From a virus (lineage: Duplodnaviria > Heunggongvirae > Uroviricota > Caudoviricetes), in the IMG/VR virus record IMGVR_UViG_3300013132_000019: 64,000 nucleotides of DNA. One strand, written 5' to 3'. The position numbers were made by a program, and so were the translations under genes. The notes under the pieces are model-generated. The model did no database searches and was not told the DNA's origin. It saw only the letters and a program-made list of their open reading frames with translations. Shown piece after piece: positions 28,877-63,898 of the stretch. Within the stretch, counting starts at the first letter, position 1. Each line of letters starts with the position of its first letter.

Positions 28877-29749
28877 TTAACAAATTAATTCTTTAGATGT
28901 AATAGCTTTTAATTTTTTCAACACACCTTTCTCAATCTGTCTGATTCTCTCCCTTGTTAATGACATATCATCACACTCACTCACCTCTTTAAGTGTCATA
29001 GGTATGTTACCATCAAGACCATACCGTCTAACAATAATCGTCTTTTCGATTGGTTTCATGTTTTCCAATAAACCCATCAAATAATCACCATTATCCGAAT
29101 TATCCAAATAATCTTCTGGTGTCAATTCATCCGAATCAAATAATATATCATGATAAGTCGAGCTATCTTCATCATTACTAATTGGTGAATCCATGGAAGT
29201 GAAGCCAAGTTCAACCAAATCAATCATTATTTTTAGATTTTCAATTTCCTTATCTGTTGATGCGGACTCAATTAGGTCATATACCGTTACAGGTCTACCC
29301 AATTCCTGTTCCAAATCAGATAGTTGTCGTTTGACATTTCTAATATTATCAACCTTATTGATTGGTAATCTTACTGTTCTTGAATTATTAGATATGAATT
29401 GTCGTATATTACGAACAATCCAATATACCGCATAAGTAAAAAACTTATTACCCATCGTAGGGTCAAATTTTTCAGCAGCCTCAATCAAACCAATATTACC
29501 CTCATTAATCAAATCCTCAATGTAAACACCTTCGGTCATATATGATTTAGCCACAGTTATAACAAATCGTAGATTTCTACGTATTAACTCATTTTTAGCA
29601 TCTACATCACCAGCATATGCTTTATATGCACATTCAGCTTCAGCATCAGCACTTTCGAAAAGTTTAATGTTATATATATCTGAAAGATATTGTTTAAGTA
29701 CACCATCACGATTAGTGATGCGTTTTTCTGTTGTATACAGGTTCGCCAT
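28877..29749 (-). CDS. RNA polymerase sigma factor, sigma-70 family (290 aa)
   Basis: Region 2 NLRFVITVAKSY...DLINEGNIGLIEAAEKFDP...YAVYWIVRNI. Region 4 LTRERIRQIEKGVLKKLK. Confidence 0.75.
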   Translation of the reverse strand: MANLYTTEKRITNRDGVLKQYLSDIYNIKLFESADAEAECAYKAYAGDVDAKNELIRRNLRFVITVAKSYMTEGVYIEDLINEGNIGLIEAAEKFDPTMGNKFFTYAVYWIVRNIRQFISNNSRTVRLPINKVDNIRNVKRQLSDLEQELGRPVTVYDLIESASTDKEIENLKIMIDLVELGFTSMDSPISNDEDSSTYHDILFDSDELTPEDYLDNSDNGDYLMGLLENMKPIEKTIIVRRYGLDGNIPMTLKEVSECDDMSLTRERIRQIEKGVLKKLKAITSKELIC

Positions 29750-31233: not shown

Positions 31234-32814
31234 TTATTTTAGCGTTGTATATTCCAAACCATTGTCTGTCTGAAATAATACGATGTGTTGAAACTTTCCC
31301 AACCTATTAACAATACCATGAGCTTGTACCCATGTTGACGCTCCGCGCACATATCTTAAATTCAAATATGTGCTTGTACCAACACTTACAGCACCACCAA
31401 CCCTACCAATAGTGTGTGAATGTCCAGTAACAGTCTTTGTAGCCAATTTACTGAATTGATTTATACTACCTCTGCTACCAGAAGCACCCAAATGACCATG
31501 ATTTGACATCAAATAACCTTTAACTGAAATATTATCGTCATAACCTAAACATTTCATTTTAGGGTAATTTAAATTGATGATGTATGGTACGATACCATTT
31601 TTAGCTTTACCATTCAACTTAGCCAATGAATACTCCATATATGGAATCGCATTTTTAAATGTATTCATTTTACGCCAATCAGTTTCGTTGAGGAATTTAT
31701 CAATATGTTCATCATGATTAGAACGAACAATATATGTATCAAAAGGTTCCAATGGTTTTAACCATTCAATCATTTCATTAATCTCTTCAGATAAATCATT
31801 TCTACCAGAAGCTTCAAGTTCATGCTGTAAAAACGGGTCTTTAAGATTATGGTGTGAAATACTTTCACTATCTATTATATCATGAATAAAAACCTTCTTA
31901 GGTGGTAGTTTTTTAAAAATGTCATTAAACGTTATATTTGTAACATTAGGGTCACAATTTCTAACATGAATGTCACCCAAAGCTATTGCCTCAACACCAC
32001 TTTCCGCTGATACCACACCGTCTTTAACTCCATAAAACAAATCAATGAATTCACCAGTTCTATCATTTGCTGAAACTTGTCTAAAAAAGAAAGTGTTATC
32101 ATCCTTTATTTCAACAATGGCAAAACCATATGTGTGATGAAATTCACCCTTCTTACCAGCTTTTGAATCAGTATAGTTTGGTTTCGTTACAGCACCAGTT
32201 GTAAACATTATTTTTGGTTTGGTCGTATCCATTACTGGAACAGTTTTTAGTTCCAATCTCGGATGTCCAACAACACAAGAATGGTCACCTGTCATACCCT
32301 CAAGCCCTTGAAGTGGTTGTGAAGCTGTGGGTTGAATCTTAACATCTGATAATACCGAAACCCTATTATTTAAATCGTGTCGATTTAACGTTAAATATTT
32401 AGTTATTGATGAATCCCACCAATCATCAGCCTCTTGATTAATTGTGAATACGCTGGTCGGATTCTTATATCTAAACGGTATAACTAAAATTTCAGCATCT
32501 AAAAATTCAGCATACGATTCCATATTGGTTAAGAATTGTCTATGAACCTTTGTAGCGTTTTGTGCCGAAGTAATTAGAAATATCTTTTTTGATTGGTCAT
32601 GTTCACGCTTTTTGGCCATCGAAAGTACTTCAGGTTCAACAACCGTTGGTGTTTTGGATAAACCTAATTTAATTAACCATTTTCTAGTGGTTCTTTCACT
32701 TATACCAGCAAAAGTCTTAATCTTATCAATTCTATCATCCCACGACATGTCTTTATTGAGAAAAATGTCTTTGATGTTATCGATATCATTATCTGTTAAG
32801 TCTTTAAATTTCAT
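31234..32814 (-). CDS. large metallophosphoesterase-domain protein with an N-terminal HTH-like region (526 aa)
   Basis: Calcineurin-like motifs GDIHV, NHDEH and GHSHT in the C-terminal half. ISERTTRKWLIKLGL near the N-terminus. Confidence 0.5.
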   Translation of the reverse strand: MKFKDLTDNDIDNIKDIFLNKDMSWDDRIDKIKTFAGISERTTRKWLIKLGLSKTPTVVEPEVLSMAKKREHDQSKKIFLITSAQNATKVHRQFLTNMESYAEFLDAEILVIPFRYKNPTSVFTINQEADDWWDSSITKYLTLNRHDLNNRVSVLSDVKIQPTASQPLQGLEGMTGDHSCVVGHPRLELKTVPVMDTTKPKIMFTTGAVTKPNYTDSKAGKKGEFHHTYGFAIVEIKDDNTFFFRQVSANDRTGEFIDLFYGVKDGVVSAESGVEAIALGDIHVRNCDPNVTNITFNDIFKKLPPKKVFIHDIIDSESISHHNLKDPFLQHELEASGRNDLSEEINEMIEWLKPLEPFDTYIVRSNHDEHIDKFLNETDWRKMNTFKNAIPYMEYSLAKLNGKAKNGIVPYIINLNYPKMKCLGYDDNISVKGYLMSNHGHLGASGSRGSINQFSKLATKTVTGHSHTIGRVGGAVSVGTSTYLNLRYVRGASTWVQAHGIVNRLGKFQHIVLFQTDNGLEYTTLK

Positions 32815-32828
32815 GCAATTTTTTTTCC

Positions 32829-33887
32829 TTATTTGTTATTTTGAATACGGCTTAAACTAATTCCGTAATCGTTTGCAAGTATCGCTTTACCAATTTCTGA
32901 CGCAACACTTATTGTCCTTAATTTATTATGCTTTACCACATTCAATGAATTTGAACCCATCACATACGTTAATGAAGATTTTTCAATTCTATCAACGGCA
33001 TTACCACTTAAAATCAAATGAGTTGTCACAGCGGATACGCTTTTCGCGCCCAATTCAATCATTTTGTCAGCGTTGGCACATAAGGTTCCAGCCGTATCAC
33101 ACATATCATCCAATAAGATTACATTTTTATCCTTAACATCACCAATTATTATAACCTCATCAACTTTATTGTCCTCAACTCTGTTCTTATGCGCGAATAC
33201 AAATGGTAAATTAACACCGTATTTATCCCTAATGCGATTCTGCATTTTAACAACACGTTTACCACCACCAGCATCAGTAGCAGCCAATACAACATCACCT
33301 AATCTGGCGTGTTCATTATGAATGAATTCAGTAAACAAATATTGACCCTTGATGTTTGTAACTGGAATATCAAAAAAACCTTCAATCTGGTCGGCATGTA
33401 ACTCCATCGTAATTATACCTGTTGCACCCAACATCTCTAATTTCTTAGCCAATACCTTAGCACCAATTGAACCTCTGTGTTGGTCTCTTTTATCTTGACG
33501 TGAGTATGGAAAATACGGTAATATCGGTATAATCTCATGCGCTGATGCTCGTCTTGCAGCATCAATGGCAAACTCCAACTTAATTATTTCATCAGAATTA
33601 ATCGGTGTTGTTAATAGATAAACCTTTTTACCTCGTATTGACTTATTAAAATCAACGTTCAATTCCCCATCAGAGAATTTTCTATTGGTCATTTCACCAA
33701 CAGAAATCGGTTCTGTGAAACCATTACCAGTAAAGTCAACAATTTCTCTCAATAGGTCAAGCCTACCATCGACAGAGAATATAATAGAATTAGTCTTTTC
33801 CATGTATTTTTTTAACAGTATATTTCCAACCAGAGTCCGAATTGACTTCGAATAATTGAGCCATCTTATTGGCTGATTCATAATCAT
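32829..33887 (-). CDS. prs: ribose-phosphate pyrophosphokinase (PRPP synthetase); the probable true start is the MEKTNSII Met at 33803
   Basis: FSDGELNV, PYFPYSRQDKR, ELHADQIEGFFDIPV and IIGDVKDKNVILLDDMCDTAGTL match Prs signatures (PRPP-binding loop DDM.DT.GT). The internal start removes the overlap with 33790..34002. Confidence 0.85.
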   Translation of the reverse strand: MIMNQPIRWLNYSKSIRTLVGNILLKKYMEKTNSIIFSVDGRLDLLREIVDFTGNGFTEPISVGEMTNRKFSDGELNVDFNKSIRGKKVYLLTTPINSDEIIKLEFAIDAARRASAHEIIPILPYFPYSRQDKRDQHRGSIGAKVLAKKLEMLGATGIITMELHADQIEGFFDIPVTNIKGQYLFTEFIHNEHARLGDVVLAATDAGGGKRVVKMQNRIRDKYGVNLPFVFAHKNRVEDNKVDEVIIIGDVKDKNVILLDDMCDTAGTLCANADKMIELGAKSVSAVTTHLILSGNAVDRIEKSSLTYVMGSNSLNVVKHNKLRTISVASEIGKAILANDYGISLSRIQNNK

Positions 33888-34002
33888 CGAACTCCATCAC
33901 TTCACTTAAACCATCCAATAAGATAATTGGTACTGTAACGCCAAATTGATTCTTAGTGTTCTTGATAATAATATAACTTTCCTTCATCCTACAAATTAAC
34001 AA
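33790..34002 (-). CDS. hypothetical small protein (70 aa)
   Basis: ORF. Plausible only if prs starts at 33803. Confidence 0.3.
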   Translation of the reverse strand: MLICRMKESYIIIKNTKNQFGVTVPIILLDGLSEVMEFDDYESANKMAQLFEVNSDSGWKYTVKKIHGKD

Positions 34003-34008
34003 ATTATT

Positions 34009-34359
34009 TTAATAGTTTACAACTGTTACCTTAATATTTTTTTCGCTGGCTAAATTAATCATATGGTTTGTTCCCTTTGATTTTTCATCCCAGAACGCTA
34101 TCAGTGCATCAGCATAATCAGCCATTTCAGCATTCCGCTTATAACCTGCACTTTTACCGAATTTATCCCATTGTGCCGCAAACTCTTTAACTGGGTATCC
34201 TCGTTCCTTAGCATATCTAAGACCTAACGAATCCGCACCTTTGGCTAAACCAGAGACAATCTCAATCTCTGATTGTTGCGATAACATATGGTCACAGGTT
34301 TTGCAGAGTAATTCGTAATTATCGAAATCTCTACCACCAGCAATAATAACTTTAAACAT
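34009..34359 (-). CDS. SLOG-superfamily protein (DUF2493/YspA-like), 116 aa
   Basis: IIAGGRDF...SGLAKGADSLGLRYAKERGY...FAAQWDKFGKSAGYKRNAEMA...ALIAFW is the DprA/LOG-like Rossmann signature. Confidence 0.5.
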   Translation of the reverse strand: MFKVIIAGGRDFDNYELLCKTCDHMLSQQSEIEIVSGLAKGADSLGLRYAKERGYPVKEFAAQWDKFGKSAGYKRNAEMADYADALIAFWDEKSKGTNHMINLASEKNIKVTVVNY

Positions 34360-34718
34360 TACTTCGGACTATAAGGTTTCCAACCTAATCTATCGTGATA
34401 CTTTCTCTTATAGTGTCCAGTTTCAAAAGTACCTAAAGATAATACAATCTCCAGAGCATTAGGTAACTCTTTGAATAACTCAAAGTATTCTTCTTCCTTA
34501 GCTTCACTCAATGGTTTATATTCGCCCATTGGGTCAAAATCTTCTGGCTTACCGTTTAAAATTATATCGATATCCTCATAAAGATTACTACCACCAAACG
34601 GTGAATTAAAACCATATTCATCCGTTACAGTAATATTATAATCCCTATCCATTCTAAACCTCAAAGCTTTCATAAGCTTTATATGCTCATCCTTCAATTC
34701 AAATTTTATTACACTCAT
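34359..34718 (-). CDS. hypothetical protein (119 aa)
   Basis: ORF. Confidence 0.45.
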   Translation of the reverse strand: MSVIKFELKDEHIKLMKALRFRMDRDYNITVTDEYGFNSPFGGSNLYEDIDIILNGKPEDFDPMGEYKPLSEAKEEEYFELFKELPNALEIVLSLGTFETGHYKRKYHDRLGWKPYSPK

Positions 34719-35149
34719 ATTAATCGTTTTTTTAAAAAATTATTTAATTCAGTCCAATCAGTTTCAGCATCAAAACCAGCTTTATCATCCATCAGGACAT
34801 TATAATATGGTTTCTTATCATAACAACCATAACCATTTAGATTGGTCGTTACTTCAGAATTTTCGTTTATATAGTCCCATTTAATTCCCAAACCATCAAA
34901 AAACCTAATGTATTCATCAATCTCATGTGGATGACTACAGGTATACATTATTATTTTAACATCCTTAGCTTCTTGAAGCATTTTAAGCCCCTCTAACGCA
35001 CCATCATACATTTCTGTTGGTATGTTACCATATTGGTAGTTTGGTTTAATTAACGTTGAATGTAGGTCAATAAACACATAAATATATGGCCATTGTTTGC
35101 GTTCCATTTCTTTGAACGCATTAATAAATGCTTTAACGACTGCTATCAT
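34715..35149 (-). CDS. HAD/NIF-like hydrolase-fold protein with a degenerate DLHSTL motif (144 aa)
   Basis: FIDLHSTL resembles the NIF/HAD motif I LDLDETL, with the second Asp replaced by His. Confidence 0.3.
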   Translation of the reverse strand: MIAVVKAFINAFKEMERKQWPYIYVFIDLHSTLIKPNYQYGNIPTEMYDGALEGLKMLQEAKDVKIIMYTCSHPHEIDEYIRFFDGLGIKWDYINENSEVTTNLNGYGCYDKKPYYNVLMDDKAGFDAETDWTELNNFLKKRLI

Positions 35150-35475
35150 AATTTCTCTTCTATTACCTTTTTAATAACATCACCATGACAATCTTTTGGC
35201 TTGCAAAAACAAACCAAATTAACATCACCAAGTTTAGCCATTTTGTGAATCTTATTCAATTCTTGACAAATATAGTTATTTTTATTTGAAATTGCAAGCC
35301 TTAAATAATTTTCGTAACTTTCGATAGCTTCTTCACGAGAAGCGCATTGAAATTCAGCCTTTGTCGCTTCAAGTTTTTTAGAACCTGTGAATGGATTACC
35401 TAAAGGTGAACCTCTACCAATGTATACATCGTTATCAGTCGGTTGATGTTTGTACTTGTTAACTACATTAATCAT
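35146..35475 (-). CDS. DUF4326-family protein (109 aa)
   Basis: YIGRGSPLGNPF...C.C.P..CHGDVI signature. Confidence 0.45.
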   Translation of the reverse strand: MINVVNKYKHQPTDNDVYIGRGSPLGNPFTGSKKLEATKAEFQCASREEAIESYENYLRLAISNKNNYICQELNKIHKMAKLGDVNLVCFCKPKDCHGDVIKKVIEEKL

Positions 35476-35634
35476 TATGGTTTTTTGTTACCTTTGATTC
35501 AAGTTCATCGTTAATCTTTTTAGACATTGAACGAAGAGCTTCTGCTATGTCATTATCCGACATATGTTCAATTAAATGTTCAGCCTTAACTTCTTTAATT
35601 AGGTCTTTGTATTGTTGGACTAACCGATTATCAC

Positions 35635-37293
35635 TCATGACAGTTCAAACTCACTAACAACTAATTTAGCGTTTTCACGCACTTGTTCAAAAGTATAATT
35701 TTTAAGTATTTTACCATTTTCGAAAACTGGCACCAATTCATCGGTGGCTTCTTCAAAACCCTCATCATTTGATGTTAGGGTATAGTAAGAACCGTCTTGG
35801 TCTTTAACCAACTTCAATTGTCCAGACTTAGATTTCTTAAACGATTGTACTTCGTTGAAGTTTTCGTCAATCTCGATAGGACTTTTTGCAACATCAATTT
35901 CCTTACCATCAATAATACTAAAACAACATTTCGTGGCGAAATTTTGAGTATCTCGGTCTATACCAGCTTGCAGCAGTTTACCACCCATCCCAAATACAAT
36001 ATTTTCCGCTGAAATTTTCCTTTCTTTCATCATTTCATATACACCAGCAATGCTATCAATATTAACACCATCCCCTTGAATTATTCGCACTTGTGGTGGT
36101 AACACCTTAAATCCTTTACTGTTTGTTGTATATCCGAAAGTTTCAAATAACGAATCGAACACCATAATCAATGTGTTAATTACATGACCACTATCAGGTC
36201 TTATAACCAATTGATTAGCTGGTTCATTTGGTCTACTCAAAATTTCAGCTTTTAGCTCTTTACCCCATAGATTCTTAACAGCATTCATAATACCAAAGGT
36301 ATCAGAGACACAAGCAACAATACCAGTTGGGTATTTTTCTAACACTCTTCGCATCATATCGACTTCACCTTCTTTACCAAGCAACGTCATAATAGAATGC
36401 TCTGTGGCTGGAACTGATTGCCCATAAACAGTATCCGTATCATAATACTCGCATATTAATCTAGATGCTGCCGTAGTATCTGAACCCCTAAAGTTAACAA
36501 GGTGTGCGGACCCACCAATTTCTGCTGACTGTACGCTTGAAACACCTCTAAAACCAAAGTCATTCAGTACATATTCCATTAAGAATTCTTTGGTTTCGGA
36601 ATCAAAATCCGTTGTTTCATCCCAAGCATTATTAACAATCTTTTTAACTTCCCTTGATAAAGTTGCGACTGTAATTGGATACCAAACCTGCAAAATCAAA
36701 GTCTCCAAGAAATTTGTTAACCATGAACATTTTGGGTCAGTATTCTCAATATATAAAAGCACATTCTTAACCCCAACAACTGAACCTTCGGGAACTGCCT
36801 TTATTTTAATTGGTAATCTACCACCATGATGTTCAACAATATAATCAAATTTGGTTCTATCAAAAACATCTTCTCTACCAAACACACCATGTACAGTACC
36901 CAAATAATCATAAGCCTCATCGACATCTTCTCTTGTTATCGCAACACCCTCAAGATATTGTTTCATAAACCATTGGAGTCCGTAGAATACCGTTTCATTG
37001 AATTTACCACCCCTTGATTCCAGATATGAACCCATTTTTGTCATACCATCTGGATAAAACTTATGGTGTGAATATTTATAAGCATCACCCAATAATACTA
37101 AATTATGTGGTTTATCTAAATATTTCTGTAACATGTCATTAAGTTCCAACATGTCACCATAATTACCTGATTTTAACGCTTGTTTAAGCTGTCTTTTAAT
37201 TTCTCTTTTTAAACTCATAATGTATTTTTTTTTAATTGTGAAATCTAGTTGATGTGAAAAACGCATCCAAAAATTTAATATGTTCTGGTACAA
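35635..37293 (-). CDS. nadV: nicotinamide phosphoribosyltransferase (NAMPT/NadV); the probable true start is MSLKRE at 37218
   Basis: Extensive identity with NAMPT: ETVFYGLQWFMKQYL, KIKAVPEGSVV, NTDPKCSWLTNFLETLILQVWYPITVAT, IRPDSGH, RIIQGDGV. Confidence 0.9.
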   Translation of the reverse strand: MYQNILNFWMRFSHQLDFTIKKKYIMSLKREIKRQLKQALKSGNYGDMLELNDMLQKYLDKPHNLVLLGDAYKYSHHKFYPDGMTKMGSYLESRGGKFNETVFYGLQWFMKQYLEGVAITREDVDEAYDYLGTVHGVFGREDVFDRTKFDYIVEHHGGRLPIKIKAVPEGSVVGVKNVLLYIENTDPKCSWLTNFLETLILQVWYPITVATLSREVKKIVNNAWDETTDFDSETKEFLMEYVLNDFGFRGVSSVQSAEIGGSAHLVNFRGSDTTAASRLICEYYDTDTVYGQSVPATEHSIMTLLGKEGEVDMMRRVLEKYPTGIVACVSDTFGIMNAVKNLWGKELKAEILSRPNEPANQLVIRPDSGHVINTLIMVFDSLFETFGYTTNSKGFKVLPPQVRIIQGDGVNIDSIAGVYEMMKERKISAENIVFGMGGKLLQAGIDRDTQNFATKCCFSIIDGKEIDVAKSPIEIDENFNEVQSFKKSKSGQLKLVKDQDGSYYTLTSNDEGFEEATDELVPVFENGKILKNYTFEQVRENAKLVVSEFELS

Positions 37294-38173
37294 TTATATC
37301 TCTACGATAATCATAAGTTAATTCATCGGTTGTGAACCATTTAACAGCATGAATATCGTCATTTGGTTTTGGTGTGCCGAATACATATTTGCATTTGAAT
37401 ACCGTGGTCATAATTCCATCCTCACACCCATTATATCTCCAATCGTCAACTTGACCACTGGTGACATATTCCATGTTACCAACTTCAATTTGACCAACCT
37501 CTTCAAACAATTCCCTTTTAGCCGCAGCTTCCCAATTACTATCTGTTCGGTCAACAAAACCACCCACCATTCGCCATTTGGTTTCGTTTGGTTTTTGCGC
37601 CAATAAGATTTTACCACCGCCTTCGGGGTTAATTTGATATGGTATAATGTCAACTGTAGGGTAAGTCACTGGATATCTATCATAAGTGGCATGAATCACG
37701 CCAGCCCTCCAATCCTCAGAAGCCCCAATCTCTTCAGAAATTAATTTCCTTGCTTGAGTACCTGAGTAAAATATATCAGTAATTAATTCTGTGGTGTCAA
37801 ATCTACCAGAATAATGACTTATAAATGAGTCTCTTGAACCATAAAGAAGGAACTTTTGATTACCGTATGGTTGTGTAACTAGATTGTCAAGTTGCTTACT
37901 CCAATCGGAATCACTTCGCATATCCTGTAATGGCAGTATTACAATATTAGGATATTCTTCTTGAATCATCAACTTCCTTGCAGCAAACGGTAATGGATTG
38001 CTTTTTGAACCAGATTTTCTAGGTACACCAAGAAAGATAACCACTTTTTTATGATGACTAACAACCTTATCAATTAAGGCTCTATGACCGTCATGAAGCT
38101 TCGCAACTTGAAATCTACCAACTAAAACGCCACAGGTATATTCTTCTGGATTGACTACAGTTTTTATTTGCAT
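37232..38173 (-). CDS. bifunctional NMN adenylyltransferase / Nudix hydrolase (NadM-Nudix, NatV-like), 313 aa
   Basis: N-terminal cytidylyltransferase motif GVLVGRFQVAKLHDGH. C-terminal Nudix box GGFVDRTDSNWEAAAKRELFEEVG. Confidence 0.8.
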   Translation of the reverse strand: MQIKTVVNPEEYTCGVLVGRFQVAKLHDGHRALIDKVVSHHKKVVIFLGVPRKSGSKSNPLPFAARKLMIQEEYPNIVILPLQDMRSDSDWSKQLDNLVTQPYGNQKFLLYGSRDSFISHYSGRFDTTELITDIFYSGTQARKLISEEIGASEDWRAGVIHATYDRYPVTYPTVDIIPYQINPEGGGKILLAQKPNETKWRMVGGFVDRTDSNWEAAAKRELFEEVGQIEVGNMEYVTSGQVDDWRYNGCEDGIMTTVFKCKYVFGTPKPNDDIHAVKWFTTDELTYDYRRDIIVPEHIKFLDAFFTSTRFHN

Positions 38174-43478: not shown

Positions 43479-44060
43479 TTAGCTTGCCGCTACATGATGG
43501 TCAATTTCCTTCGAGACTCTTTGACTGAGAATACCATCAATCTCATCAAAAGTGAATGGTCTATATTCGCCTAATATTCTGGCAGCACTATCAATACCAA
43601 CGTCCATGCTTTTCCCCCATTGTTCATATTCCAATGAGTCATGTGAGTGTCCATAAAGGTGGTATGAACCGTGATGTGACTTATTCCAGACTCTCATGGC
43701 ATAATGACACATTACAATCATATTACGTTTACCATTGTATTCATACTTTAACTCGTAGTAATCCTTAATCCATTCAAATCTATCACGATTTTCTTTGCTG
43801 GACATAACGCTCTTCTCATGGTTACCTTTAATCAGATATAACCTACCGTTAAGTCTGTTAAGAATCTTATTGGTTTCTTCTTGATTTGTCAAACTGACAT
43901 CACCAAGAATATATACCTCATCATTCGGCTTAATAAGATTATTCCAGTTTTTGATTATGGTTTCATTCATATTATCAACAGACTCAAATGGTCTATTAGC
44001 GTATTTAATAATATTTTTGTGCCCGAAATGCGGGTCTGAAATAAAATAAGTATTTTTCAT
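43479..44060 (-). CDS. metallophosphoesterase (calcineurin-like), 193 aa
   Basis: ISDPHFGH, GDVSL and GNHE motifs. Confidence 0.7.
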   Translation of the reverse strand: MKNTYFISDPHFGHKNIIKYANRPFESVDNMNETIIKNWNNLIKPNDEVYILGDVSLTNQEETNKILNRLNGRLYLIKGNHEKSVMSSKENRDRFEWIKDYYELKYEYNGKRNMIVMCHYAMRVWNKSHHGSYHLYGHSHDSLEYEQWGKSMDVGIDSAARILGEYRPFTFDEIDGILSQRVSKEIDHHVAAS

Positions 44061-48132: not shown

Positions 48133-48171
48133 ATTATCTTTTTTATGTTTTTAAATTTTAAAATTAAATTT

Positions 48172-48235
48172 AGATTGGGGTGGGAGTCGAACCCACCTAT
48201 GCCAACCAATCTTGAAGGATTCGAACCCCCGTAAA
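48172..48235 (-). ncRNA. tRNA-like minihelix / pseudo-tRNA fragments (acceptor AGATTGG/CCAATCT plus GTGGG-TTCGACT-CCCAC T-arm, and a second GGGGG-TTCGAAT motif)
   Basis: Two T-arm-like motifs with no complete cloverleaf. Confidence 0.3.
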
Positions 48236-48284
48236 ACAAAGCGGAACCGAAAACTGACAACCATTCAGTTTTAGTTTTAAGCTC

Positions 48285-48387
48285 GTAGTCAGGACAGGAT
48301 TCGAACCTATATGAAGTATCATCTAATGACCTTATTCTTTTACCCACAATGTAGGGTATTATGCGTCTACCAATTCCGCCACCTGAC
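48285..48387 (-). tRNA. tRNA-Leu-like gene (Leu-type D-arm GGTGGCGGAATTGGTAGACGC), 103 nt, with about 18 nt more than a normal class II tRNA; anticodon unresolved; possible small intron or insert
   Basis: Perfect acceptor AGTCAGG/CCTGACT and T-arm ATAGG-TTCGAAT-CCTGT. The candidate anticodon hairpin TACCC-TACATTGT-GGGTA has an 8-nt loop. A separate ATGA-TACT-TCAT hairpin sits where a variable arm would be. Confidence 0.4.
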
Positions 48388-48589
48388 TATATTCGGGACG
48401 GGAGTAAGCCGCTCCCGTTTGTCCCTACTTCTTTACTGTCGTTTGAGTTTTGAGTTTAGGTCTGAAAACTCCTTCGGTAAGGAAAAGGACCACAGTTTTC
48501 TGGAAAACTTACCTAAACCCCTTTATACAACATTTGTTTCATCTCGTTAAACAATAGTCTCATAGGACGAGGACTAAAAAACGGCTTGT

Positions 48590-48719
48590 GGTCAGTAAAG
48601 GATTCGAACCTTTATAAGATGAGGTGTGTTTTTCTCTCAGGGCTTATTACGCGTTACTCACCCGTCTTGATTACCGACACTTGTTACCAATCTGTGTTTC
48701 GCCAATACACCGACTGACC
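48590..48719 (-). tRNA. tRNA-like gene (130 nt) whose ~50-nt internal insert is derived from the 16S rRNA 5' domain (GACGGGTGAGTAACGCGTAATAAGCCCTGAGAGAAA...ACACCTCAT)
   Basis: Acceptor GGTCAGT/ACTGACC, D-arm GTGT-ATTGGCGAA-ACAC and T-arm AAAGG-TTCGAAT-CCTTT are all perfect. The insert contains an exact 18-mer of the universally conserved bacterial 16S region GACGGGTGAGTAACGCGT. Confidence 0.4.
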
Positions 48720-48850
48720 GTTTAAAAAATTCAATGAGGGTTTCCATTTCCTCTCCGATAACTGTTGTCAATGTGATTTGTGTTAGTGTACCTCTAACTT
48801 AGACACATCGGTGACTCCCATTGTATATGGTTTTAACGTCAATTGAATTG

Positions 48851-48980
48851 TAGTCAGGACAGGATTCGAACCTGTACAGTGTAGTTATATTTTCCCGATA
48901 CCTTTGGAAACTTAATTCCTCAATCTTGTGTAATCTACACCATTATCTTTTTTAGCGTCTACCAATTCCGCCACCTGACT
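48851..48980 (-). tRNA. second tRNA-Leu-like gene (same acceptor, D-arm and T-arm as 48285..48387), 130 nt, with a ~45-nt internal insert; anticodon unresolved
   Basis: The exon-like ends are identical to the first copy. The middle segment differs and contains a GTGTA-GAT-TACAC hairpin. Confidence 0.4.
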
Positions 48981-49444
48981 ATGAAATTATCATCTGCCTC
49001 CCACCACAGGAGGATGCAGTTAATCTGAATCCCTTTCACAGTAATCATATTACTAGGTGTACCAGATGCCATTTTGAGTTAATGGTAACCACACTTTCAA
49101 ACAGACAACGCCCTTTGGTGTCGGGCTATACTTTGATGGCAGCTCCAGACCATCTCTTTTCGGAACTTCATAACTGAAAGTACTGTCTGCTGAAACAGAT
49201 GAATTTTAATATTATAAAACCAATTGGATGAGTCAAAATATGTTACGGTTGATGGCCTCGGTGAAATTTTTAGTTTTCATAAAAGCAATTTCAACTTAAC
49301 TTGTACCAAACAACCATAATTCTAAATAGGTGGCCTACACACTCAGCACCAGTTGCATGGTGGCAACCTGAAATGTGGACGATGCTGCCTCGCCATTAAA
49401 CTGCTATCGGCCTACCTTTATAATATTGTCAAAGAACGATGATA
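48981..49444 (-). ncRNA. ~460-nt GC-enriched, structured, ORF-poor leader transcribed from the promoter at 49445 into the tRNA cluster; contains an ATGAAAACT-initiated 15-codon ORF
   Basis: There is a TATATTTG box at 49445-49452 and no ORF of 60 codons or more. Multiple hairpins are present, and gcttttATGAAAACTAAAAATTTC resembles the other cassette leaders. Confidence 0.3.
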
Positions 49445-49476
49445 CAAATATAGTGATTATTTTTCATATCACCAAA

Positions 49477-50399: not shown

Positions 50400-50560
50400 A
50401 TTTATTATAAATATGTTAAAAAAAAAAGAAGGGGAGCCATTACGGTCTTTCTTGTGATTCAATGCGCAATCACCACAATAACAATCGGTCTTCGAGAGGT
50501 CGGTGAACTACCCACCCACGCCAGAGGCGATGGGTTGGGCTTCATGAGTCAGCACTCCCA
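50400..50560 (-). ncRNA. candidate omega-RNA (TnpB guide RNA scaffold) overlapping the tnpB 3' end and the IS right end
   Basis: An exceptionally GC-rich, hairpin-rich ~150 nt (for example CCCACCCACGCCAGAGGCGATGGGTTGGG), in the position where IS605-family omega-RNAs are encoded. Confidence 0.35.
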
Positions 50561-51785
50561 CTAACGTGGGCAGTTCGTCATGATTTTTTCTGTCAGTTCC
50601 TGACAAAATATTTCTTAAACTAAAATTTTTAATATTAATTGCCGCATTTATATCCCTATCATGTTCAGTATTACAGTTAACACAAGTCCATTCTCTATCT
50701 TTTAACGTTAGTTCTTTATTAATATAACCACAGTTAGAACATGTCTTTGATGATGGTTCAAATCTACCTATCTTAAGTATATTTGTTCCATACCATTCAG
50801 ACTTATATTCTAACATATTAACAAAAGTTGACCAACTTACATCTGATATTGCTTGTGCTAAATTATGATTTTTAATCATATTACTTACAGCAAGATTTTC
50901 TAAACTGATTGTTTGGTTCTCACGAACCAGTTTAGAAGATATTTTATGCAAATAATCTTTTCTTTTATTTGTTACTTTTTCATGTAACTTTGCTAATTTT
51001 TGTTTTGTTCTTTTTCCTTTATTTTTACTATACTTACTCTGTATGTATTTTAATTTAGATTGTGCTTTACGTAAGTGCTTAGGGTTATCAAATACTTCAC
51101 CATCTGATGTTATTACGAAATCTTTAATTCCTAAGTCTATACCAATAGTAGTTTCTTCTTTTATCTTAGATTTAGGTTTACATTGTTCACCAGTTTCACA
51201 AAGAATGGAAACAAAATACTTACCTGTGGGTGTTTTAGATATTGTTGCTTGTCTTATTTCACCTTTAAGTGGTCTATGTAATATAATATCTAACCCATTT
51301 TTCTTTGTGAATTTAGGTATAATTAATTTATTATTTTCTACTTTTACTCTTTGTGGTATGTTAAAACTACCACCATTAGATTTCTTTTTATACTTAGGAA
51401 ATGAATTTTGACCTTTAAAAAAAGCGGTATATGCTTTATCTAAATTAGTTATACTTTGCTGTAATGATTGTGAATTAATTTCCTTTAACCAAGACAATTC
51501 TTCTTTCAATTCTTTTAGTTGTGAATGCAGTTCAAAACAAGAAAGATTATGTTTATTGCCAGCATAAGCTATTTGTTTGGTTTCCAACGCTAAATTATAT
51601 ATAAACCTAGAAGCACCAATATGCTTATTCAGAAGAACTTTTTGTTCTTCAGTCGGATTAAGTCTATATTTAAAAGCTTTCAACATCATATATAAATATG
51701 TAGAAAAATTAAAAAGTTTAAAGAAAATATAAAATTTATTTACATTTATTGAATTAATGTTGTTATTGTCGCTTTCATCCCACCC
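50471..51785 (-). mobile_element. TnpB-only IS200/IS605-family (IS1341-like) insertion element, about 1.3 kb, with a short inverted motif at the ends
   Basis: tnpB runs 50508..51689. CACAATAACAATCG at 50474-50487 and its inverse CGACAATAACAAC at 51770-51782 flank it. A GC-rich segment overlaps the tnpB 3' end. Confidence 0.55.
50508..51689 (-). CDS. tnpB: TnpB (IS605 OrfB-family RuvC-like RNA-guided endonuclease), 393 aa
   Basis: N-terminal FKYRLNPT. RuvC-I IGIDLGIKDF. Zinc finger CSNCG...CVNC. RuvC-III DRDINAAINI. Confidence 0.8.
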   Translation of the reverse strand: MMLKAFKYRLNPTEEQKVLLNKHIGASRFIYNLALETKQIAYAGNKHNLSCFELHSQLKELKEELSWLKEINSQSLQQSITNLDKAYTAFFKGQNSFPKYKKKSNGGSFNIPQRVKVENNKLIIPKFTKKNGLDIILHRPLKGEIRQATISKTPTGKYFVSILCETGEQCKPKSKIKEETTIGIDLGIKDFVITSDGEVFDNPKHLRKAQSKLKYIQSKYSKNKGKRTKQKLAKLHEKVTNKRKDYLHKISSKLVRENQTISLENLAVSNMIKNHNLAQAISDVSWSTFVNMLEYKSEWYGTNILKIGRFEPSSKTCSNCGYINKELTLKDREWTCVNCNTEHDRDINAAINIKNFSLRNILSGTDRKNHDELPTLVGVLTHEAQPIASGVGG

Positions 51786-54431: not shown

Positions 54432-55577
54432 TTAGTTTTTTGTCCCGTAGAAAGATGGTTTTGGACCACCTAATTTGATGTCCTGTAATAACTGATATTG
54501 TCTTTGCGTTAGAAATATGAACTCATCCTTACCAGCTTTATTAATCCAACCACTTAAAACCTTTTCACCACTTCTATTGGTTGTGTTCTTTTTTAAACCT
54601 TTTAGATAACCAACAGATATTCGTTTCTTTTCATCGTTTTCAGTTATGGTGACTGATTTATCGTATGCTTGAGTTTGTATATCATTCAATTTACCCATAA
54701 ATTCATTTCGTCTTAAAAGTTTAAACACAATGTTTGTTGGTGAAAACTCACCACCAGTTTCTAAACCAGATTTTCGCATTTTTCTGATTCGTTCTTTCAG
54801 TTTGGTAATATCATCAATTACACCGTCTAAGTCATCACCTTTTTTAAAATCCTTTTCGATGTCTTCAATACGTTTGATTATTGTATCGTATTTTTTCTCG
54901 ATTGTTGGTCTATCCAATTCAACTATGTCTTTTATTGGTTCTTTAACCCAAGCATTATCAGTAATTGAGTAGACACCTGTTGAATGATGTGGTTCGTCTT
55001 TATCCTGTAGATAAAGTTCGACATCAAAACCTTTAACCGTTATGTCATGGTCAGAATTCCATTTTCTGGTTTTGGTATCCAATAAATCTTTAATCAATTC
55101 AGGGTCACCTTCAAGTTGGTTCACATCAAATACTATATGTAGGTCAATATCTGAATACTTTGACCAATTATAATTCGCCAAACTACCAGTCATTGTTACA
55201 TCATCATATGTGAAACCAAGTTCCAATGAATCCCAATAATCGTTTGCGATTTTTAATAATACTTTACGTATGTCTTCTTTAATTTTACCACCATCCCATA
55301 TTTCAGAATTAAGGGTGTCGTTCATTTTGAATGTGGATAGGTCAACCTCATTCAATATTTCTTCTAAGTGTTTAGCTTTATTGATTTCAATCGCGGCCAG
55401 CTGTTTAAGTGCTTTCTCTTTAGTGTCGTGAGTACCTAATCGTTTACCACCCTTTTTTGGATATACAACATACTTACCATTTTGTTTTTTAATGGTTTCG
55501 TTAAGTTGTTCACGTAAAGATTTTCTAATATCTTGCCTCATAACAATAAATATGGTCAGAAGTAGACAACATTCCAA
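54432..55577 (-). CDS. polymerase-beta-superfamily nucleotidyltransferase-domain protein (381 aa; the start is probably the internal MRQDIRK)
   Basis: TMTGSLANYNWSKYSDIDLHIVFD fits the GS-x(9-13)-DhD NTase motif. The rest is uncharacterised. Confidence 0.45.
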   Translation of the reverse strand: MECCLLLTIFIVMRQDIRKSLREQLNETIKKQNGKYVVYPKKGGKRLGTHDTKEKALKQLAAIEINKAKHLEEILNEVDLSTFKMNDTLNSEIWDGGKIKEDIRKVLLKIANDYWDSLELGFTYDDVTMTGSLANYNWSKYSDIDLHIVFDVNQLEGDPELIKDLLDTKTRKWNSDHDITVKGFDVELYLQDKDEPHHSTGVYSITDNAWVKEPIKDIVELDRPTIEKKYDTIIKRIEDIEKDFKKGDDLDGVIDDITKLKERIRKMRKSGLETGGEFSPTNIVFKLLRRNEFMGKLNDIQTQAYDKSVTITENDEKKRISVGYLKGLKKNTTNRSGEKVLSGWINKAGKDEFIFLTQRQYQLLQDIKLGGPKPSFYGTKN

Positions 55578-56305
55578 TTACCATCAAAATCTTCAACCAA
55601 ACAAGAAAGGTTTTCCACCCAATCACCACTATTCAGATATTCAATATCATTAATGTTCTTTTTCTCTGGTTGATGTATATGTCCACAGATAACACCATCA
55701 TAACCTTTTTTCTTAGCGACTGACGTTATATAATTTTCAAAATCCGTTACAAATTTAACTGCTTGCTTAACACTATCTTTAATCATTTTACTCACAGACA
55801 AATACGGCAAACCTCTCCACTTTCTCCATTCATTGTACCAATAGTTGAACCATAGTGCCAAATCATAACCTATTGAACCTATTTTGGCTAACCAACCCAT
55901 TTTAGTTATGAAAACATCAAAGATGTCACCATGTGTAATCAAATAGCGGTTCCCGTTTGCACCGATATAATCCATTTCCTTTAAAACCGTTATACCATTG
56001 ATTTTTGACTCAAACGGTAAAAAATCATCTAAAAAGTCATCATGGTTACCTCTAACCCAATAAACCTCACTTTCTTTTTGTGCTAACCTGAAAAACTTCT
56101 TAATGCACTTGGTGTGCTTATCCTTCCATTTACTTCCCCGTTTTAAAGCCCAACCATCGATTATATCGCCATTCAATATTAATGTCTCAGCTTTATTTTG
56201 ATTTAAAAATTTTACAACTTCTTCCGCTTTTGATTCTCTAATACCTAAGTGAATGTCACTTAAAACTATTGTTCTCCATTCAGTGGTTTTTTTACTCATG
56301 ACCAA
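55556..56305 (-). CDS. metallophosphoesterase (249 aa)
   Basis: LSDIHLG, GDIIDGW, GNHD and GHIH motifs. Confidence 0.65.
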   Translation of the reverse strand: MVMSKKTTEWRTIVLSDIHLGIRESKAEEVVKFLNQNKAETLILNGDIIDGWALKRGSKWKDKHTKCIKKFFRLAQKESEVYWVRGNHDDFLDDFLPFESKINGITVLKEMDYIGANGNRYLITHGDIFDVFITKMGWLAKIGSIGYDLALWFNYWYNEWRKWRGLPYLSVSKMIKDSVKQAVKFVTDFENYITSVAKKKGYDGVICGHIHQPEKKNINDIEYLNSGDWVENLSCLVEDFDGNWNVVYF

Positions 56306-57051: not shown

Positions 57052-57129
57052 TGGGCAAGACGGGAATCGAACCCGTATATCCTTTACTTTTGAGGTAAAG
57101 AGGCTTCACCAGCTTTCCATCACTCGCCC
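57052..57129 (-). tRNA. tRNA with a Leu anticodon (CAA) but class-I architecture (short variable arm, enlarged D-loop)
   Basis: Acceptor GGGCGAG/CTTGCCC, anticodon arm TTTAC-CTCAAAA-GTAAA, T-arm ACGGG-TTCGATT-CCCGT, D-loop containing AAAGCTGGTGAAG. Confidence 0.5.
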
Positions 57130-57139
57130 AAATTTTTAG

Positions 57140-57217
57140 TAGGGAAGACGGGAGTCGAACCCGTATATCCTTTGATTTTAAGTCAAAGAGGCTTCACCAG
57201 CTTTCCATCACTTCCCC
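57140..57217 (-). tRNA. paralogous tRNA with a Leu anticodon (UAA), same atypical architecture
   Basis: Acceptor GGGGAAG/CTTCCCT, anticodon arm TTTGA-CTTAAAA-TCAAA, T-arm ACGGG-TTCGACT-CCCGT. Confidence 0.5.
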
Positions 57218-57472: not shown

Positions 57473-57550
57473 TACGGGTAGAGGGAGTCGAACCCCCAAA
57501 TCAGCAGTTCCTAAGACTGCTCGGCTTCACCAAACTTTCCGCATACCCGC
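57473..57550 (-). tRNA. third paralog with a Leu anticodon (UAG), same atypical architecture
   Basis: Acceptor GCGGGTA/TACCCGT, D-stem CGG/CCG with a 14-nt loop, anticodon arm GCAGT-CTTAGGA-ACTGC, T-arm GGGGG-TTCGACT-CCCTC. Confidence 0.5.
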
Positions 57551-58165: not shown

Positions 58166-58480
58166 ATGGGAACAGTATATCTTTTAGGTGAGTTTGTGGA
58201 TAATCCGAGATACAAAATTGGAATAACAAAAAACAATGTTAATTCCCGTTTGAAGGAATTGCAAACAGGTAATCCAAATGAAATAATCCTAATTAACCAA
58301 TACGAATCTGAGAATTATAGAAAGATTGAGGGGATGCTACATAGAAAATTCTTTATGAATCGAGCTAAAGGTGAATGGTTTGATTTAACCAATGAACAAG
58401 TTTTTTCGTTTCTTGATGAAGCAAAAAAAGCTGATGAACTCATCAGCTTTTTAAAGGAGAACAATTGTTTCTACGACTAA
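58166..58480 (+). CDS. T5orf172 (GIY-YIG-like, MUG113) domain protein (104 aa)
   Basis: VYLLGEF...YKIGITKNNVNSRLKELQTGNP signature. Plus strand. Confidence 0.55.
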   Translation: MGTVYLLGEFVDNPRYKIGITKNNVNSRLKELQTGNPNEIILINQYESENYRKIEGMLHRKFFMNRAKGEWFDLTNEQVFSFLDEAKKADELISFLKENNCFYD

Positions 58481-59490
58481 TCTTTGTTAACCACGCAAGT
58501 TCCGTTATAATAATAGTCAAACTCTTCTAACATATTATCAGTACCAAACTTTATTGTGATTTCTGTGAAATCGCCAAATTGGTCATTAATATAGTCTTTA
58601 AAACCACCAATTGCCTGACCCAATTCTTTACCTTCAAGACCAAATTTATCGATGATGTGCTTACCGTTGAATAATACGGATGCATATTTGCTTTTTGACA
58701 CCTCATATTCAATTCTAGCGATTTCATCAAAGATTTTTGCGTCTGGAAAGAAATAATCGATTCTTCTATATAGTTCAATATCAGAAAGATTATGTTCGTA
58801 CTTATGGTTATCATCAGCAACATTCTTATCAATCCAATCTAAAAACGCCATATAGGATACTCTTTTAAGGTTTCTTTCGCGATTAATTCGATTAAGTTCA
58901 TCCAACTGGAATTTGGTCCAATTGAAATATGGTGATTCAGAAATGAATTGAAATATCTCATCCAAAGTTTCAAAACCTTTTAACCATCTGTTAAAATCCA
59001 ACCCTAAGAACTCATAAATCTTTTCTTGGTCTTTGCTGACCATTATCTTATGTTTGGTGTCCTTATAGTAATATGTTATCCAAAAACCTTCAGCACCATA
59101 TCTACCACCCATATGATGAGCCAATCTTCCCAGATAATTGCCGAGGTCGTTGAATGAAAGGTAGCTTAAGTATGAATCAAAATGGTCTTCAGAAGTGGTT
59201 ATAAGGTCAATCTGAAATTCTTTATAATCAAATGACCAACAGTTACCATTGTGATATATCTCATTTGGTTTAAACTGTTCGGTTATCAATTCTCTTATAT
59301 TACCAGAATAACCTTTCATTGAAACCAAAATATCCATATCACCAAAACTTTCTTTTGTATGATAATATCTTGGTATTTCGGCTTTGTAAAAAAACCTTCG
59401 GATTTTCCTAAGAACCTCAGAAGTGAGTTTGATATACTCTTCCTTTTGGTAACGTCTTGTATACGCTGTCTTTATTGCTCTGCCACCCAT
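58477..59490 (-). CDS. polymerase-beta-type nucleotidyltransferase-domain protein (337 aa)
   Basis: KESFGDMDILV fits hG[GS]...DhD. The C-terminal region is uncharacterised. Confidence 0.45.
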   Translation of the reverse strand: MGGRAIKTAYTRRYQKEEYIKLTSEVLRKIRRFFYKAEIPRYYHTKESFGDMDILVSMKGYSGNIRELITEQFKPNEIYHNGNCWSFDYKEFQIDLITTSEDHFDSYLSYLSFNDLGNYLGRLAHHMGGRYGAEGFWITYYYKDTKHKIMVSKDQEKIYEFLGLDFNRWLKGFETLDEIFQFISESPYFNWTKFQLDELNRINRERNLKRVSYMAFLDWIDKNVADDNHKYEHNLSDIELYRRIDYFFPDAKIFDEIARIEYEVSKSKYASVLFNGKHIIDKFGLEGKELGQAIGGFKDYINDQFGDFTEITIKFGTDNMLEEFDYYYNGTCVVNKD

Positions 59491-62743: not shown

Positions 62744-63898
62744 CTATGTTAGTAGGGCATATAGTTTTTTGTTATCCATTTGACGTAGATAATCTGGTAT
62801 GGTTTTAACTTTACCATCGTTTAATCCGAAGAATAAACCAGTGAAAGATTTTAAATCATTTGAATCTGCTATATCAAAAACCTTATTAGCAAATAATTTT
62901 CTTTCTTCTTTGGTTATATCTTTTGGTCTAAATTGGTTTAAAGCTTCCCATGATGAGTATAACTTATCAGTTAATTCATTATAATTTTGATGTAATGACC
63001 TAACCTCGTCTTCTCTTTCACGGAATGTCGCAACATATTCTTCAATCTCATTAGTTTTTATGACTTCCATGATATGGTGGGCTTCTGTCCCATTTTTTAA
63101 ATGGTGTACAGCGACATATGCTGGATTTTTAACCTTAACTCTGTTAAAATTACCATCAACAACAACATAACCTTCATTATCATAGGGCATCTGTTCGAAT
63201 GTCTTTATAAGATAATCAAAATTACCTTTATTAAGTTCATGTTCTTCAACATATGGAACACCTAACCAATCAGCTATTTGAATCACATCATTCTTTGAGT
63301 ATTCATCTAACGTTTTTAAATCCCTAACAGTTAACAACGTAACACTAGAAGTTGCATGTGGTGTTACTACTATGTTATACGGTGTTGTTAACTCAAACAC
63401 ATAGGTATTATCGACATCTAACGCTTCAGTGAAATTATCATAATCTGTAAAGTTATAAATGGTTTCCCAAAACAAATCGTTGAATGATGTGTTAAGTCTA
63501 TTATTAACCTCACCTTCACCTTCAGCGGTACCAGTAGTGGCAGCAAACCAACGATTTTTATGCCAATCATAATATAAGTTAATGCAGGTACCATCCAACT
63601 TAGTTTGGATTCTGGCCGTTGACCAATCTATTGTAGCGGCATGACCTTCAGCTGAATTATAAAACTTGGTTAGACCAAGACACATGACCTTCCATGTATC
63701 TTTTTCTAATACAATACCTCTACACTCTTCAACCTCTCTATTACCAAATGGAGATTCAATCTGGTCATATTTAATACATATTTTTTTATCATACACACGA
63801 ATCTTAAGTTTGAAGTCGTTTAACGCTTTACTTAATCCGTGTTCTTTTATGTATTTAACTATAGCTAATTCCATTGTATCTTTTAATTTAGGATACAA
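62744..63898 (-). CDS. RNA ligase, Rnl1-like (ATP-dependent nucleotidyltransferase motif I KLDGT); the track start is TTG at 63898, and the ATG at 63874 (MELAIV) is more likely
   Basis: TKLDGTCINLYY resembles Rnl1/ligase motif I KxDG. Length 376-384 aa, similar to T4 Rnl1. A TATATTTG box lies at 63896-63903. Confidence 0.5.
   Translation of the reverse strand: MYPKLKDTMELAIVKYIKEHGLSKALNDFKLKIRVYDKKICIKYDQIESPFGNREVEECRGIVLEKDTWKVMCLGLTKFYNSAEGHAATIDWSTARIQTKLDGTCINLYYDWHKNRWFAATTGTAEGEGEVNNRLNTSFNDLFWETIYNFTDYDNFTEALDVDNTYVFELTTPYNIVVTPHATSSVTLLTVRDLKTLDEYSKNDVIQIADWLGVPYVEEHELNKGNFDYLIKTFEQMPYDNEGYVVVDGNFNRVKVKNPAYVAVHHLKNGTEAHHIMEVIKTNEIEEYVATFREREDEVRSLHQNYNELTDKLYSSWEALNQFRPKDITKEERKLFANKVFDIADSNDLKSFTGLFFGLNDGKVKTIPDYLRQMDNKKLYALLT

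Follow-up and report, generated by a model that had tools for sequence, protein, structure and literature searches.

What are three over-long tRNA-like genes doing in a tailed phage, and do they decode anything at all? The question arises in IMG/VR record IMGVR_UViG_3300013132_000019, from which a window of 64,000 nucleotides (the whole stretch of DNA that was analysed) contains a gap of 1.3 kb at 48133-49476 that is free of open reading frames (ORFs). The minus strand of this gap holds three genes that have the ends of a tRNA and a long insert, hereafter the payload, in their middle. We found that they belong to a large and widespread phage RNA family that is apparently undescribed. From a tRNA, its conserved frame retains the 7-bp acceptor stem and A73 as the discriminator, together with a D arm of the Leu type and a T arm that includes the elbow nucleotides, and the payload replaces the anticodon and variable arms. 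The explanation that we favor, with moderate confidence, is that the family consists of phage-specific non-decoding RNAs derived from a class II tRNA-Leu, in which the frame would serve processing, stability and probably leucylation, and the payload would have a specific job.

The scanner with which we delimited tRNA-like units considers only the pairing of the arms and the consensus of the T loop. In all three genes the acceptor stem pairs at 7/7 positions, the loop of the D arm contains GG, and a 5-bp T stem carries a TTCGAAT loop. Gene 1 (103 nt, 48286..48388, minus strand) scores 37.4 bits with the Rfam tRNA model and forms 7/7 acceptor and 5/5 T-stem pairs. Its Leu-type frame reads AGTCAGG / GCGGAATTGGTAGACGC / ATAGGTTCGAATCCTGT / CCTGACT followed by A73, and its 52-nt payload (48311-48362, minus strand) is predicted to fold into two small hairpins (minimum free energy z-score -1.68), with no canonical anticodon arm in the fold prediction. 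The central gene 2 (131 nt, 48589..48719, minus strand, 32.1 bits with the same model) has the diverged frame GGTCAGT / GTGT..ACAC / AAAGGTTCGAATCCTTT / ACTGACC plus A73. Its payload of 80 nt (48614-48693, minus strand) forms one long irregular hairpin, or “rod,” of five helical segments at the site of the anticodon arm. Gene 3 (130 nt, 48851..48980, minus strand) has the frame of gene 1 and a payload of 79 nt (48876-48954), in which an A-rich single strand precedes a long hairpin closed by GGTGTAG/CTACACT (fold z-score -1.37). The original prediction, made from the letters of the window, had described three over-long tRNA-like genes with textbook arms; this was borne out, on the minus strand and with coordinates within 1 nt. 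It also held that the outer genes have identical ends and unrelated middles. The middles are indeed unrelated and the 26-nt 5' parts identical, but the 25-nt 3' parts differ at one T-stem position, which still pairs. The locus itself is not an artefact of assembly, since 777 nt of the tRNA-like region were matched at 100% identity in an independent sequencing run (SRR11049220).

Could these genes simply be ordinary class II tRNAs? They have the acceptor stem, the D arm with G18G19 and the T arm of a canonical tRNA. What follows position 26 is not an anticodon arm (5-bp stem, 7-nt loop, U33), and the genes do not have the usual length of ~70-95 nt. Genes 1 and 3 carry the core of a class II tRNA-Leu (GCGGAATTGGTAGACGC, A73 and U48), and none of the three presents a Leu anticodon in a canonical loop together with one long variable arm. 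At default settings, ARAGORN called 0/3 of the genes. The Rfam tRNA model fits genes 1 and 2 only via a local end that skips the anticodon arm, and gene 3 has no Rfam match. Arms that are textbook, combined with a covariance model that must skip the anticodon arm and with the silence of ARAGORN, indicate that these are not ordinary class II tRNAs. We rejected that alternative because ARAGORN, Rfam and a test for hairpin enrichment (see below) all point to the absence of an anticodon arm. The idea of a tRNA scaffold with an embedded foreign middle, already put forward in the original prediction, is thus supported.

The family was revealed by the 26-nt 5' end shared by the outer genes, AGTCAGGTGGCGGAATTGGTAGACGC, which occurs exactly in >120 IMG/VR viral contigs among the matches listed. 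The middle that comes next differs each time, and the ACAGGTTCGAATCCTGTCCTGACTA behind it, i.e., the T arm and the acceptor strand, is near-invariant; total lengths are 76-169 nt. A scan of the fetched loci yielded 147 distinct members with payloads of 21-119 nt. There are up to eight members per locus, and they sit in or beside large tRNA arrays. Among 185,579 species genomes the 26-mer was found in only 5, always on short contigs of metagenome-assembled genomes (MAGs) binned as Flavobacterium, Chitinophagaceae and others. This rarity and the restriction to short MAG contigs indicate that the frame is phage-specific, and they led us to discard the idea of a host tRNA or a prophage att site. 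Neither the 26-mer nor family members occur in 50,697 GenBank phage records. We came across no account of the family in the searchable literature, and the 26-mer itself appears in no paper. Three loci (L015, L077, L097) also contain tRNAs of normal size (71-73 nt) with Lys-type anticodon loops (UUU, CUU) that combine the AGTCAGG acceptor with the T arm of the family, implying that this acceptor/T-arm module is shared beyond the Leu-type members.

If the frame matters as RNA, its stems should show it. Among 114 distinct sequences chosen by their 5' 26-mer only, double compensatory changes occur at the T-stem pairs 49-65, 50-64 and 51-63 (A-T to G-C; C-G to T-A or A-T; A-T to T-A or G-C), with at most 3 non-pairing cells per pair. 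Covariation is also seen in the acceptor stems (GACCGAG/CTTGGTC, GGTTGGG/CCCAACC) and D stems of other members, a set that carries less weight because it was selected by pairing. The surroundings of the genes are also those of tRNAs. Members are preceded by AANAT, with T at position -1 in 85% of the family, and the discriminator is followed by C in 97% and then by an A-rich stretch (AANAT/gene/CAAA). This pattern recurs in the 171 canonical tRNAs of these loci (T at -1 in 68%, C at +1 in 98%). These shared flanks suggest a common processing by RNase P and by the 3' maturation/CCA pathway. Members in L003, L082, L097, L108, L112, L114, L115, L272/L273 and other loci have a conserved leader hairpin, TGACAGCTYGGAAAGACRAGCAAMAT, whose end lies 4-6 nt upstream of the mature 5' end. 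It accompanies 9/123 family members, where <1 is expected, and 3/171 canonical tRNAs.

The frame is of the Leu type. Of the ~100 members that reach 90 nt or more, 85 have the exact Leu D arm GCGG-AATTGGTAG-ACGC, and across the family U48 is found in 89% and A73 in 79%. The bacterial leucyl-tRNA synthetase (LeuRS) requires A73 plus the core U8-A14, G18-U55 and G19-C56, and its affinity falls only 2.5-fold when the whole anticodon stem-loop is deleted (PMC2377443). To judge from its sequence, the conserved frame would essentially be the part of tRNA-Leu that is used by the synthetase, and leucylation of the family RNAs is plausible. Decoding class II tRNA-Leu genes exist separately in the phages that carry the family, with different, ordinary G1-C72 acceptor stems, so that the family forms a separate, non-decoding lineage.

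The payloads raise their own question: are they fillers, or are they maintained? They are A-rich and fold better than their shuffled versions (mean z-score of -0.94 over 103 payloads, p ~1e-14), and the same payload types recur across different contigs. In 36 homologous pairs the identity averages 90% in the payload and 95% in the frame; the 80-nt flanks are at 27% and 43%, i.e., unalignable. One payload class of seven sequences shows a compensatory change from U-A to C-G. A payload type thus appears to be conserved as a unit together with its frame. The differences between homologues showed no general concentration at the centre of the payload.

These results bear on the possibility that the genes have no function at the RNA level, being either tRNA pseudogenes in decay or selfish cassettes that recombination through the conserved ends has carried from one phage tRNA array to another. 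Several copies per genome and conserved ends amid unrelated flanks are what such elements would produce, and no partner or target of a payload was found. Yet pseudogenes would hardly accumulate compensatory changes in the acceptor, D and T stems, nor keep the nucleotides of tertiary interaction and identity (U48, G18G19, A73) and the tRNA-type processing flanks. The covariation and above-random folding of the payloads are equally at odds with this explanation, which we consider unlikely. Compensatory changes, kept identity nucleotides, tRNA-type flanks and payloads that covary and fold argue together for selection on the folded RNA.

Selection on the RNA could still concern the frame only. The family could be a decoy or sponge whose frame titrates a tRNA-binding factor such as LeuRS, RNase P, EF-Tu or a tRNA-modifying enzyme, or draws away a host defence nuclease of class II tRNAs, in which case the payload need merely differ from a cleavable anticodon or variable arm. 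The frame is the most conserved part of the family, and nucleases of the relevant type exist: Septu and retron-Eco7 cleave a class II tRNA (tRNA-Tyr) in its variable loop, and phages counter such defence systems with tRNAs of their own (PMC13096335). This phage also encodes Rnl1- and Rnl2-like ligases and phosphoesterases that are typical of tRNA repair. Its three decoding tRNA-Leu genes (CAA, UAA and UAG; 57052-57129, 57140-57217 and 57473-57550, minus strand, identified by ARAGORN) fit as well, having a variable region of just 5-6 nt without the long class II arm. Such an arm is the norm for bacterial and phage tRNA-Leu. Short variable regions may matter if host nucleases target variable arms. 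ARAGORN sets the anticodon of the CAA and UAA genes at the odd position 28. What makes a decoy of the frame somewhat unlikely to us is the behavior of the payloads, which are not free to drift: homologues are ~90% identical between unalignable flanks, covary and fold above random expectation. Furthermore, a single decoy would need no dozens of individually conserved payload types, up to 8 of them in one genome.

A different answer was offered by the original prediction, which suggested that the inserts may be short tRNA introns. They would be spliced by proteins, with the help of the phage RNA ligases, to yield decoding tRNA-Leu. Such ligases are encoded within the window, and the intron search of ARAGORN does recover gene 1 as a tRNA-Leu(AAG) with a 21-nt intron, a joined loop CUAAGGU and then a 4-bp variable arm. 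Applied to the whole family, the search recognizes 99/134 real sequences, a small excess over the 83 +/- 5 obtained with shuffled ones, and it makes 19 Leu calls against 10.9 +/- 3.2 in shuffles, of which 1/40 reaches 19. Shuffling the payload of gene 1 shows what these calls are worth: of 2,000 shuffled versions, 72% are still called, 9.5% of them as Leu. With such a rate of false positives the intron mode of ARAGORN is uninformative. The predicted anticodons span nearly all amino acids on a Leu frame, with intron positions from 30 to 40, and genes 2 and 3 give only poor sub-threshold intron models. Hairpins resembling an anticodon stem-loop are not enriched in the payloads (11 observed versus 6 +/- 2.6 expected). 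With 21-119 nt the inserts fall far below the size of group I introns, they match no Rfam intron family, and we found no splicing endonuclease domain in the subset of window ORFs that was scanned. Intact decoding tRNA-Leu genes are in any case already present in these phages. Given the small excess of Leu calls, a few recently derived members may be exceptions. As an account of the family, introns are highly improbable, and the proposal went unsupported given the shuffled calls and the scatter of amino acids and positions.

The central gene poses an additional intriguing question: why does it contain a piece of 16S rRNA? The original prediction had noted an 18-mer of 16S rRNA in this gene, which is present at 48649-48666 on the minus strand. 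The comparison with real 16S genes (two in IMG/VR and 45 Bacteroidota 16S loci) and BLAST lengthen it to a 20-nt identical stretch, AGACGGGTGAGTAACGCGTA, at 48648..48667 (minus strand). Against rRNA operons, the payload with this 20-mer reaches 40.1 bits (E 1.3e-5), the maximum of shuffled sequences being 32.2. Gene 2 has the sole payload, out of 189, whose match to rRNA operons exceeds shuffles, and its RNA has the same sense as the rRNA. These facts could be explained by mimicry. The payload of this gene would then imitate the 5' domain of host 16S rRNA and be a decoy for an rRNA-binding protein, a nuclease or an assembly factor, or else its loop would have been patched from host ribosomal DNA (rDNA).

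Mimicry would be expected to extend beyond the 20-mer, or at least to be conserved. The continuation AGCCCTGAGAGAAA...ACACCTCAT, said to parallel the downstream 16S sequence, is present as letters, but 143/500 and 175/500 shuffles of the tail score equally. When the 20-mer is kept fixed and both flanks are shuffled, 86-178/300 shuffles do as well, so that the similarity on either side is no better than chance. The hairpin of 16S helix 8 is not reproduced in the payload, and the Rfam small-subunit rRNA model gives no match.

The homologues of the central payload were more informative. Three exact-pattern scans for the frame or junction of the gene gave no match, one of them having used a gap range shorter than the sequence of the window itself. 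A search for phage SmpB genes and then a pattern scan identified four distinct homologues of the payload in other viral contigs. The blocks GTGTCGGTAATCAAGACGGGTG and AAGCCCTGAGAGAAAARCAYACC are common to all of them. The standard AGTCAGG frame is found in most and AGTTAGG in one, so that gene 2 is a family member with a diverged frame. Gene 2 and the four homologues fold as a cloverleaf in which the rod of five helical segments replaces the anticodon arm. In this class 95.6% of the cells are paired, compared with 30-49% in slid controls, and both sides change in 8 pairs, a number attained by 0/500 shuffles. The apical loop of the rod has 14-16 nt and differs in every homologue (TATAAGCAATAG, TATAGCATGGAAC, TATAACATGTAA); in the window this hypervariable loop is at 48644-48659 and reads AGTAACGCGTAAT. 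The first 9 nt of the 20-mer (AGACGGGTG) lie in a conserved block of the payload and the last 11 nt in the apical loop. Hence, the four homologues retain only 9/20 nt of the 16S identity.

With 11 nt of the identity in a hypervariable loop that differs in the homologues, the resemblance is neither extended nor conserved, the very outcome that the original prediction had named as counting against a decoy. Its rRNA-mimicking decoy is unsupported in the form in which it was stated. The 16S-identical stretch is probably this copy's version of the apical loop rather than a conserved rRNA mimic. An exact match of 20 nt to Bacteroidota 16S is still striking, since 11 further matches beyond the conserved block have a probability of ~2e-7 per site by chance, and a patch of host rDNA or a lineage-specific selection are both possible for the AGTAACGCGTA loop. 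A one-off recombination patch or a coincidence accounts for the 20-mer without any function, and we consider a mimic of 16S rRNA in the central gene very unlikely. As a property of the family, rRNA mimicry was rejected because the other payloads have no match to 16S/23S operons.

The evidence thus brings us back to the explanation favored at the outset, that of non-decoding RNAs with a tRNA-Leu frame and a functional payload, and several points weigh against it. Our sampling was seeded with the exact 26-mer, which exaggerates the invariance of the frame. The Leu frame could merely reflect descent from one tRNA-Leu gene, and gene 2, which does have A73, carries C8 in place of U8 and a D arm that is not of the Leu type. 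In Aquifex aeolicus how the variable arm is oriented also matters for LeuRS (PMC2377443). The conservation of payloads relative to their flanks could stem from recent transfer of cassettes and not from purifying selection. No Rfam family was found in the payloads of 16 loci at gathering thresholds, and there is no universal payload motif, only a weak enrichment of AAGTCC (9/128). Identity or complementarity of payloads to rRNA or to the sampled phage DNA does not exceed that of shuffles, except for the single 20-mer. Finally, no conserved protein partner is encoded within ~5 kb of the family loci, the largest cluster covering 18 of the ~120 loci. We also considered payloads as guides against phage DNA, and this was abandoned: the significant matches were only homologous tRNA-like genes missed by the scanner.

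How could such RNAs be made and used? The tRNA-like genes would be transcribed together with the neighbouring tRNA arrays and excised by the tRNA maturation enzymes, with RNase P acting at the 5' end and trimming and CCA addition at the 3' end. The L-shaped frame would confer stability and would probably permit charging with leucine, because leucyl-tRNA synthetase ignores the anticodon. We infer excision, CCA addition, L-shape stability and probable leucylation from the sequence features of the frame. The last step is speculative: the payload, placed at the site of the anticodon arm, might bind some specific host or phage RNA or protein.

Do known RNAs resemble this family? The stable RNAs C and D of phage T4 seem to be the nearest precedents. 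These RNAs (rnaC/rnaD, “species 1 and 2”) are 119-139 nt long, do not decode and lie inside the tRNA cluster of a phage that encodes Rnl1 and Rnl2. In rnaC a canonical T arm, CCGGGUUCGAAUCCCGG, is followed by an acceptor-like 3' strand, with ~90 nt in between. Unlike the family, rnaC pairs imperfectly in its acceptor (5/7 pairs) and lacks a clear D arm; we saw no sequence similarity, and T4 has two RNAs whereas here one frame has many payloads. The family thus shares the description of rnaC (~100-140 nt, non-decoding, a T arm, acceptor-like ends, a position in a tRNA cluster), and the two can be grouped on that basis, descriptively. The function of the T4 RNAs C and D is still unknown (PMC9697503).

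Transfer-messenger RNA (tmRNA) also has a tRNA-like acceptor and T arm with a large functional insert at the site of the anticodon arm, and its identity (Ala) is independent of the anticodon, as the Leu identity of the family would be. It differs in several respects: the family has the pair U3-A70 and not G3-U70, it keeps a full D arm, and its payloads of 21-119 nt lack a conserved tag ORF and pseudoknots. ARAGORN found no tmRNA in the window, and the sole Rfam tmRNA signal, of 11.1 bits, lies elsewhere than the three genes. Related phages do encode their own tmRNA and SmpB. The gene of SmpB was found in at least 98 IMG/VR contigs of related freshwater phages, some >400 kb (L187 2511-2939; L189-L268). 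Several are adjoined by an ARAGORN-predicted tmRNA (e.g., L233 10520-10918, L246 9518-9924), and ClpP is also encoded in L187 and L107. One contig (L233/L269) has tmRNA and SmpB together with two members of the family. Neither this window nor the fetched flanks of family loci contain SmpB, and SmpB shows no particular adjacency to family members in the SmpB-centred loci that were scanned; we dropped a link between SmpB and the family on these grounds.

The bacterial Y RNAs of the YrlA type are a further parallel, being non-coding RNAs in which a tRNA-like module of D arm, T arm and acceptor is joined to a long helix. Some YrlA RNAs are cut by RNase P and given a CCA, and they also occur in phages (PMC4201824). 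YrlA ends in a Ro-binding helix and its acceptor is closed by a loop, whereas the family has an open acceptor and a closed rod. The tRNA-like genes have no Rfam match to YrlA, and no TROVE/Ro60 protein was found among the large window ORFs that were tested. In engineered “tRNA scaffold” RNAs, an artificial laboratory design, the tRNA body is a handle for processing and stability and the payload replaces the anticodon stem, the same site as in the family. The tRNA-miRNA (TMER) genes of murine gammaherpesvirus 68 (MHV68) also join a tRNA body, as such a handle, to an unrelated RNA payload; their payload is 3' of the tRNA-like part and the virus is eukaryotic.

The genomic context is that of a large phage. 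The window is part of a jumbo phage, having in common with a 266-kb contig a DUF3307 protein; it derives from contig Ga0172373_10000165 of JGI 3300013131. Its GC content is ~32%, and nearly all genes are on the minus strand. Elsewhere in the window there are 14 ordinary tRNAs (ARAGORN, default settings). When the tRNA-like cluster was traced in relatives via the flanking UVR-motif and DUF3307 proteins, it was not syntenic. Directly downstream of gene 1 are two overlapping minihelix elements (48172-48211 and 48206-48256, minus strand), each with an acceptor-like stem and a perfect T arm (GGGGGTTCGAATCCTTC, GTGGGTTCGACTCCCAC) and without D or anticodon arm. Both are retained in the 92%-identical variant L131, where the changes preserve pairing. 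They were the sole yield, at 48172-48256, of a relaxed and very noisy scan of the whole window for degenerate copies. About 1.5 kb upstream of the tRNA-like cluster sits a gene for a TnpB / IS605 OrfB protein of 393 aa (50508-51689, minus strand) with HTH_OrfB_IS605, OrfB_IS605 and Cas12f1-like TNB domains.

The set of RNA repair-type genes (25565-26611, 62744-63898, 43479-44060, 55556-56305 and 54432-55577, all on the minus strand) comprises an Rnl2-like ligase (PF09414), a T4 Rnl1-like ligase (PF09511), two metallophosphoesterases and a protein with a nucleotidyltransferase domain. Genes for NAD salvage (phosphoribosyl pyrophosphate synthetase, NAMPT and a NUDIX protein) and a sigma-70-type factor (32829-38173 and 28877-29749, minus strand) are typical of large phages. 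Two large ORFs of 526 aa (31234-32814) and 337 aa (58477-59490), both on the minus strand, have no Pfam match.

Finally, what does this family mean? It groups with the tRNA-like non-decoding RNAs of phage tRNA clusters, and what is novel is the combination of one frame with many payloads; we found no description in the searchable literature of a single conserved frame with many conserved and unrelated payloads. Default tRNA finders miss these genes and Rfam matches only part of them, so that an abundant predicted class of RNAs in phage tRNA arrays is left unannotated. The family offers a comparative handle on the 50-year-old question of the role of rnaC and rnaD in T4. Since the frame corresponds to the part required by LeuRS, cleavage by RNase P, addition of CCA and leucylation follow as direct predictions. 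Should the payloads act as effectors, natural RNA aptamers or anti-defence RNAs would have a new source in this family, which would also supply a ready scaffold for expressing them. More tentatively, it is possible that phages of freshwater Bacteroidota build a whole library of small effector RNAs on a single leucylatable tRNA-Leu frame, a modular platform in which hypervariable apical loops, such as the 16S-identical one, would be the elements of specificity. If this were true, there would be dozens to hundreds of payload domains, excised by the tRNA maturation enzymes and presented at the anticodon end, each targeting a different factor of the host or of a rival, for example as anti-defence decoys or regulators. 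The engineered tRNA scaffold would then have its counterpart in nature, and the family would add a new class to the RNA effectors of phages.

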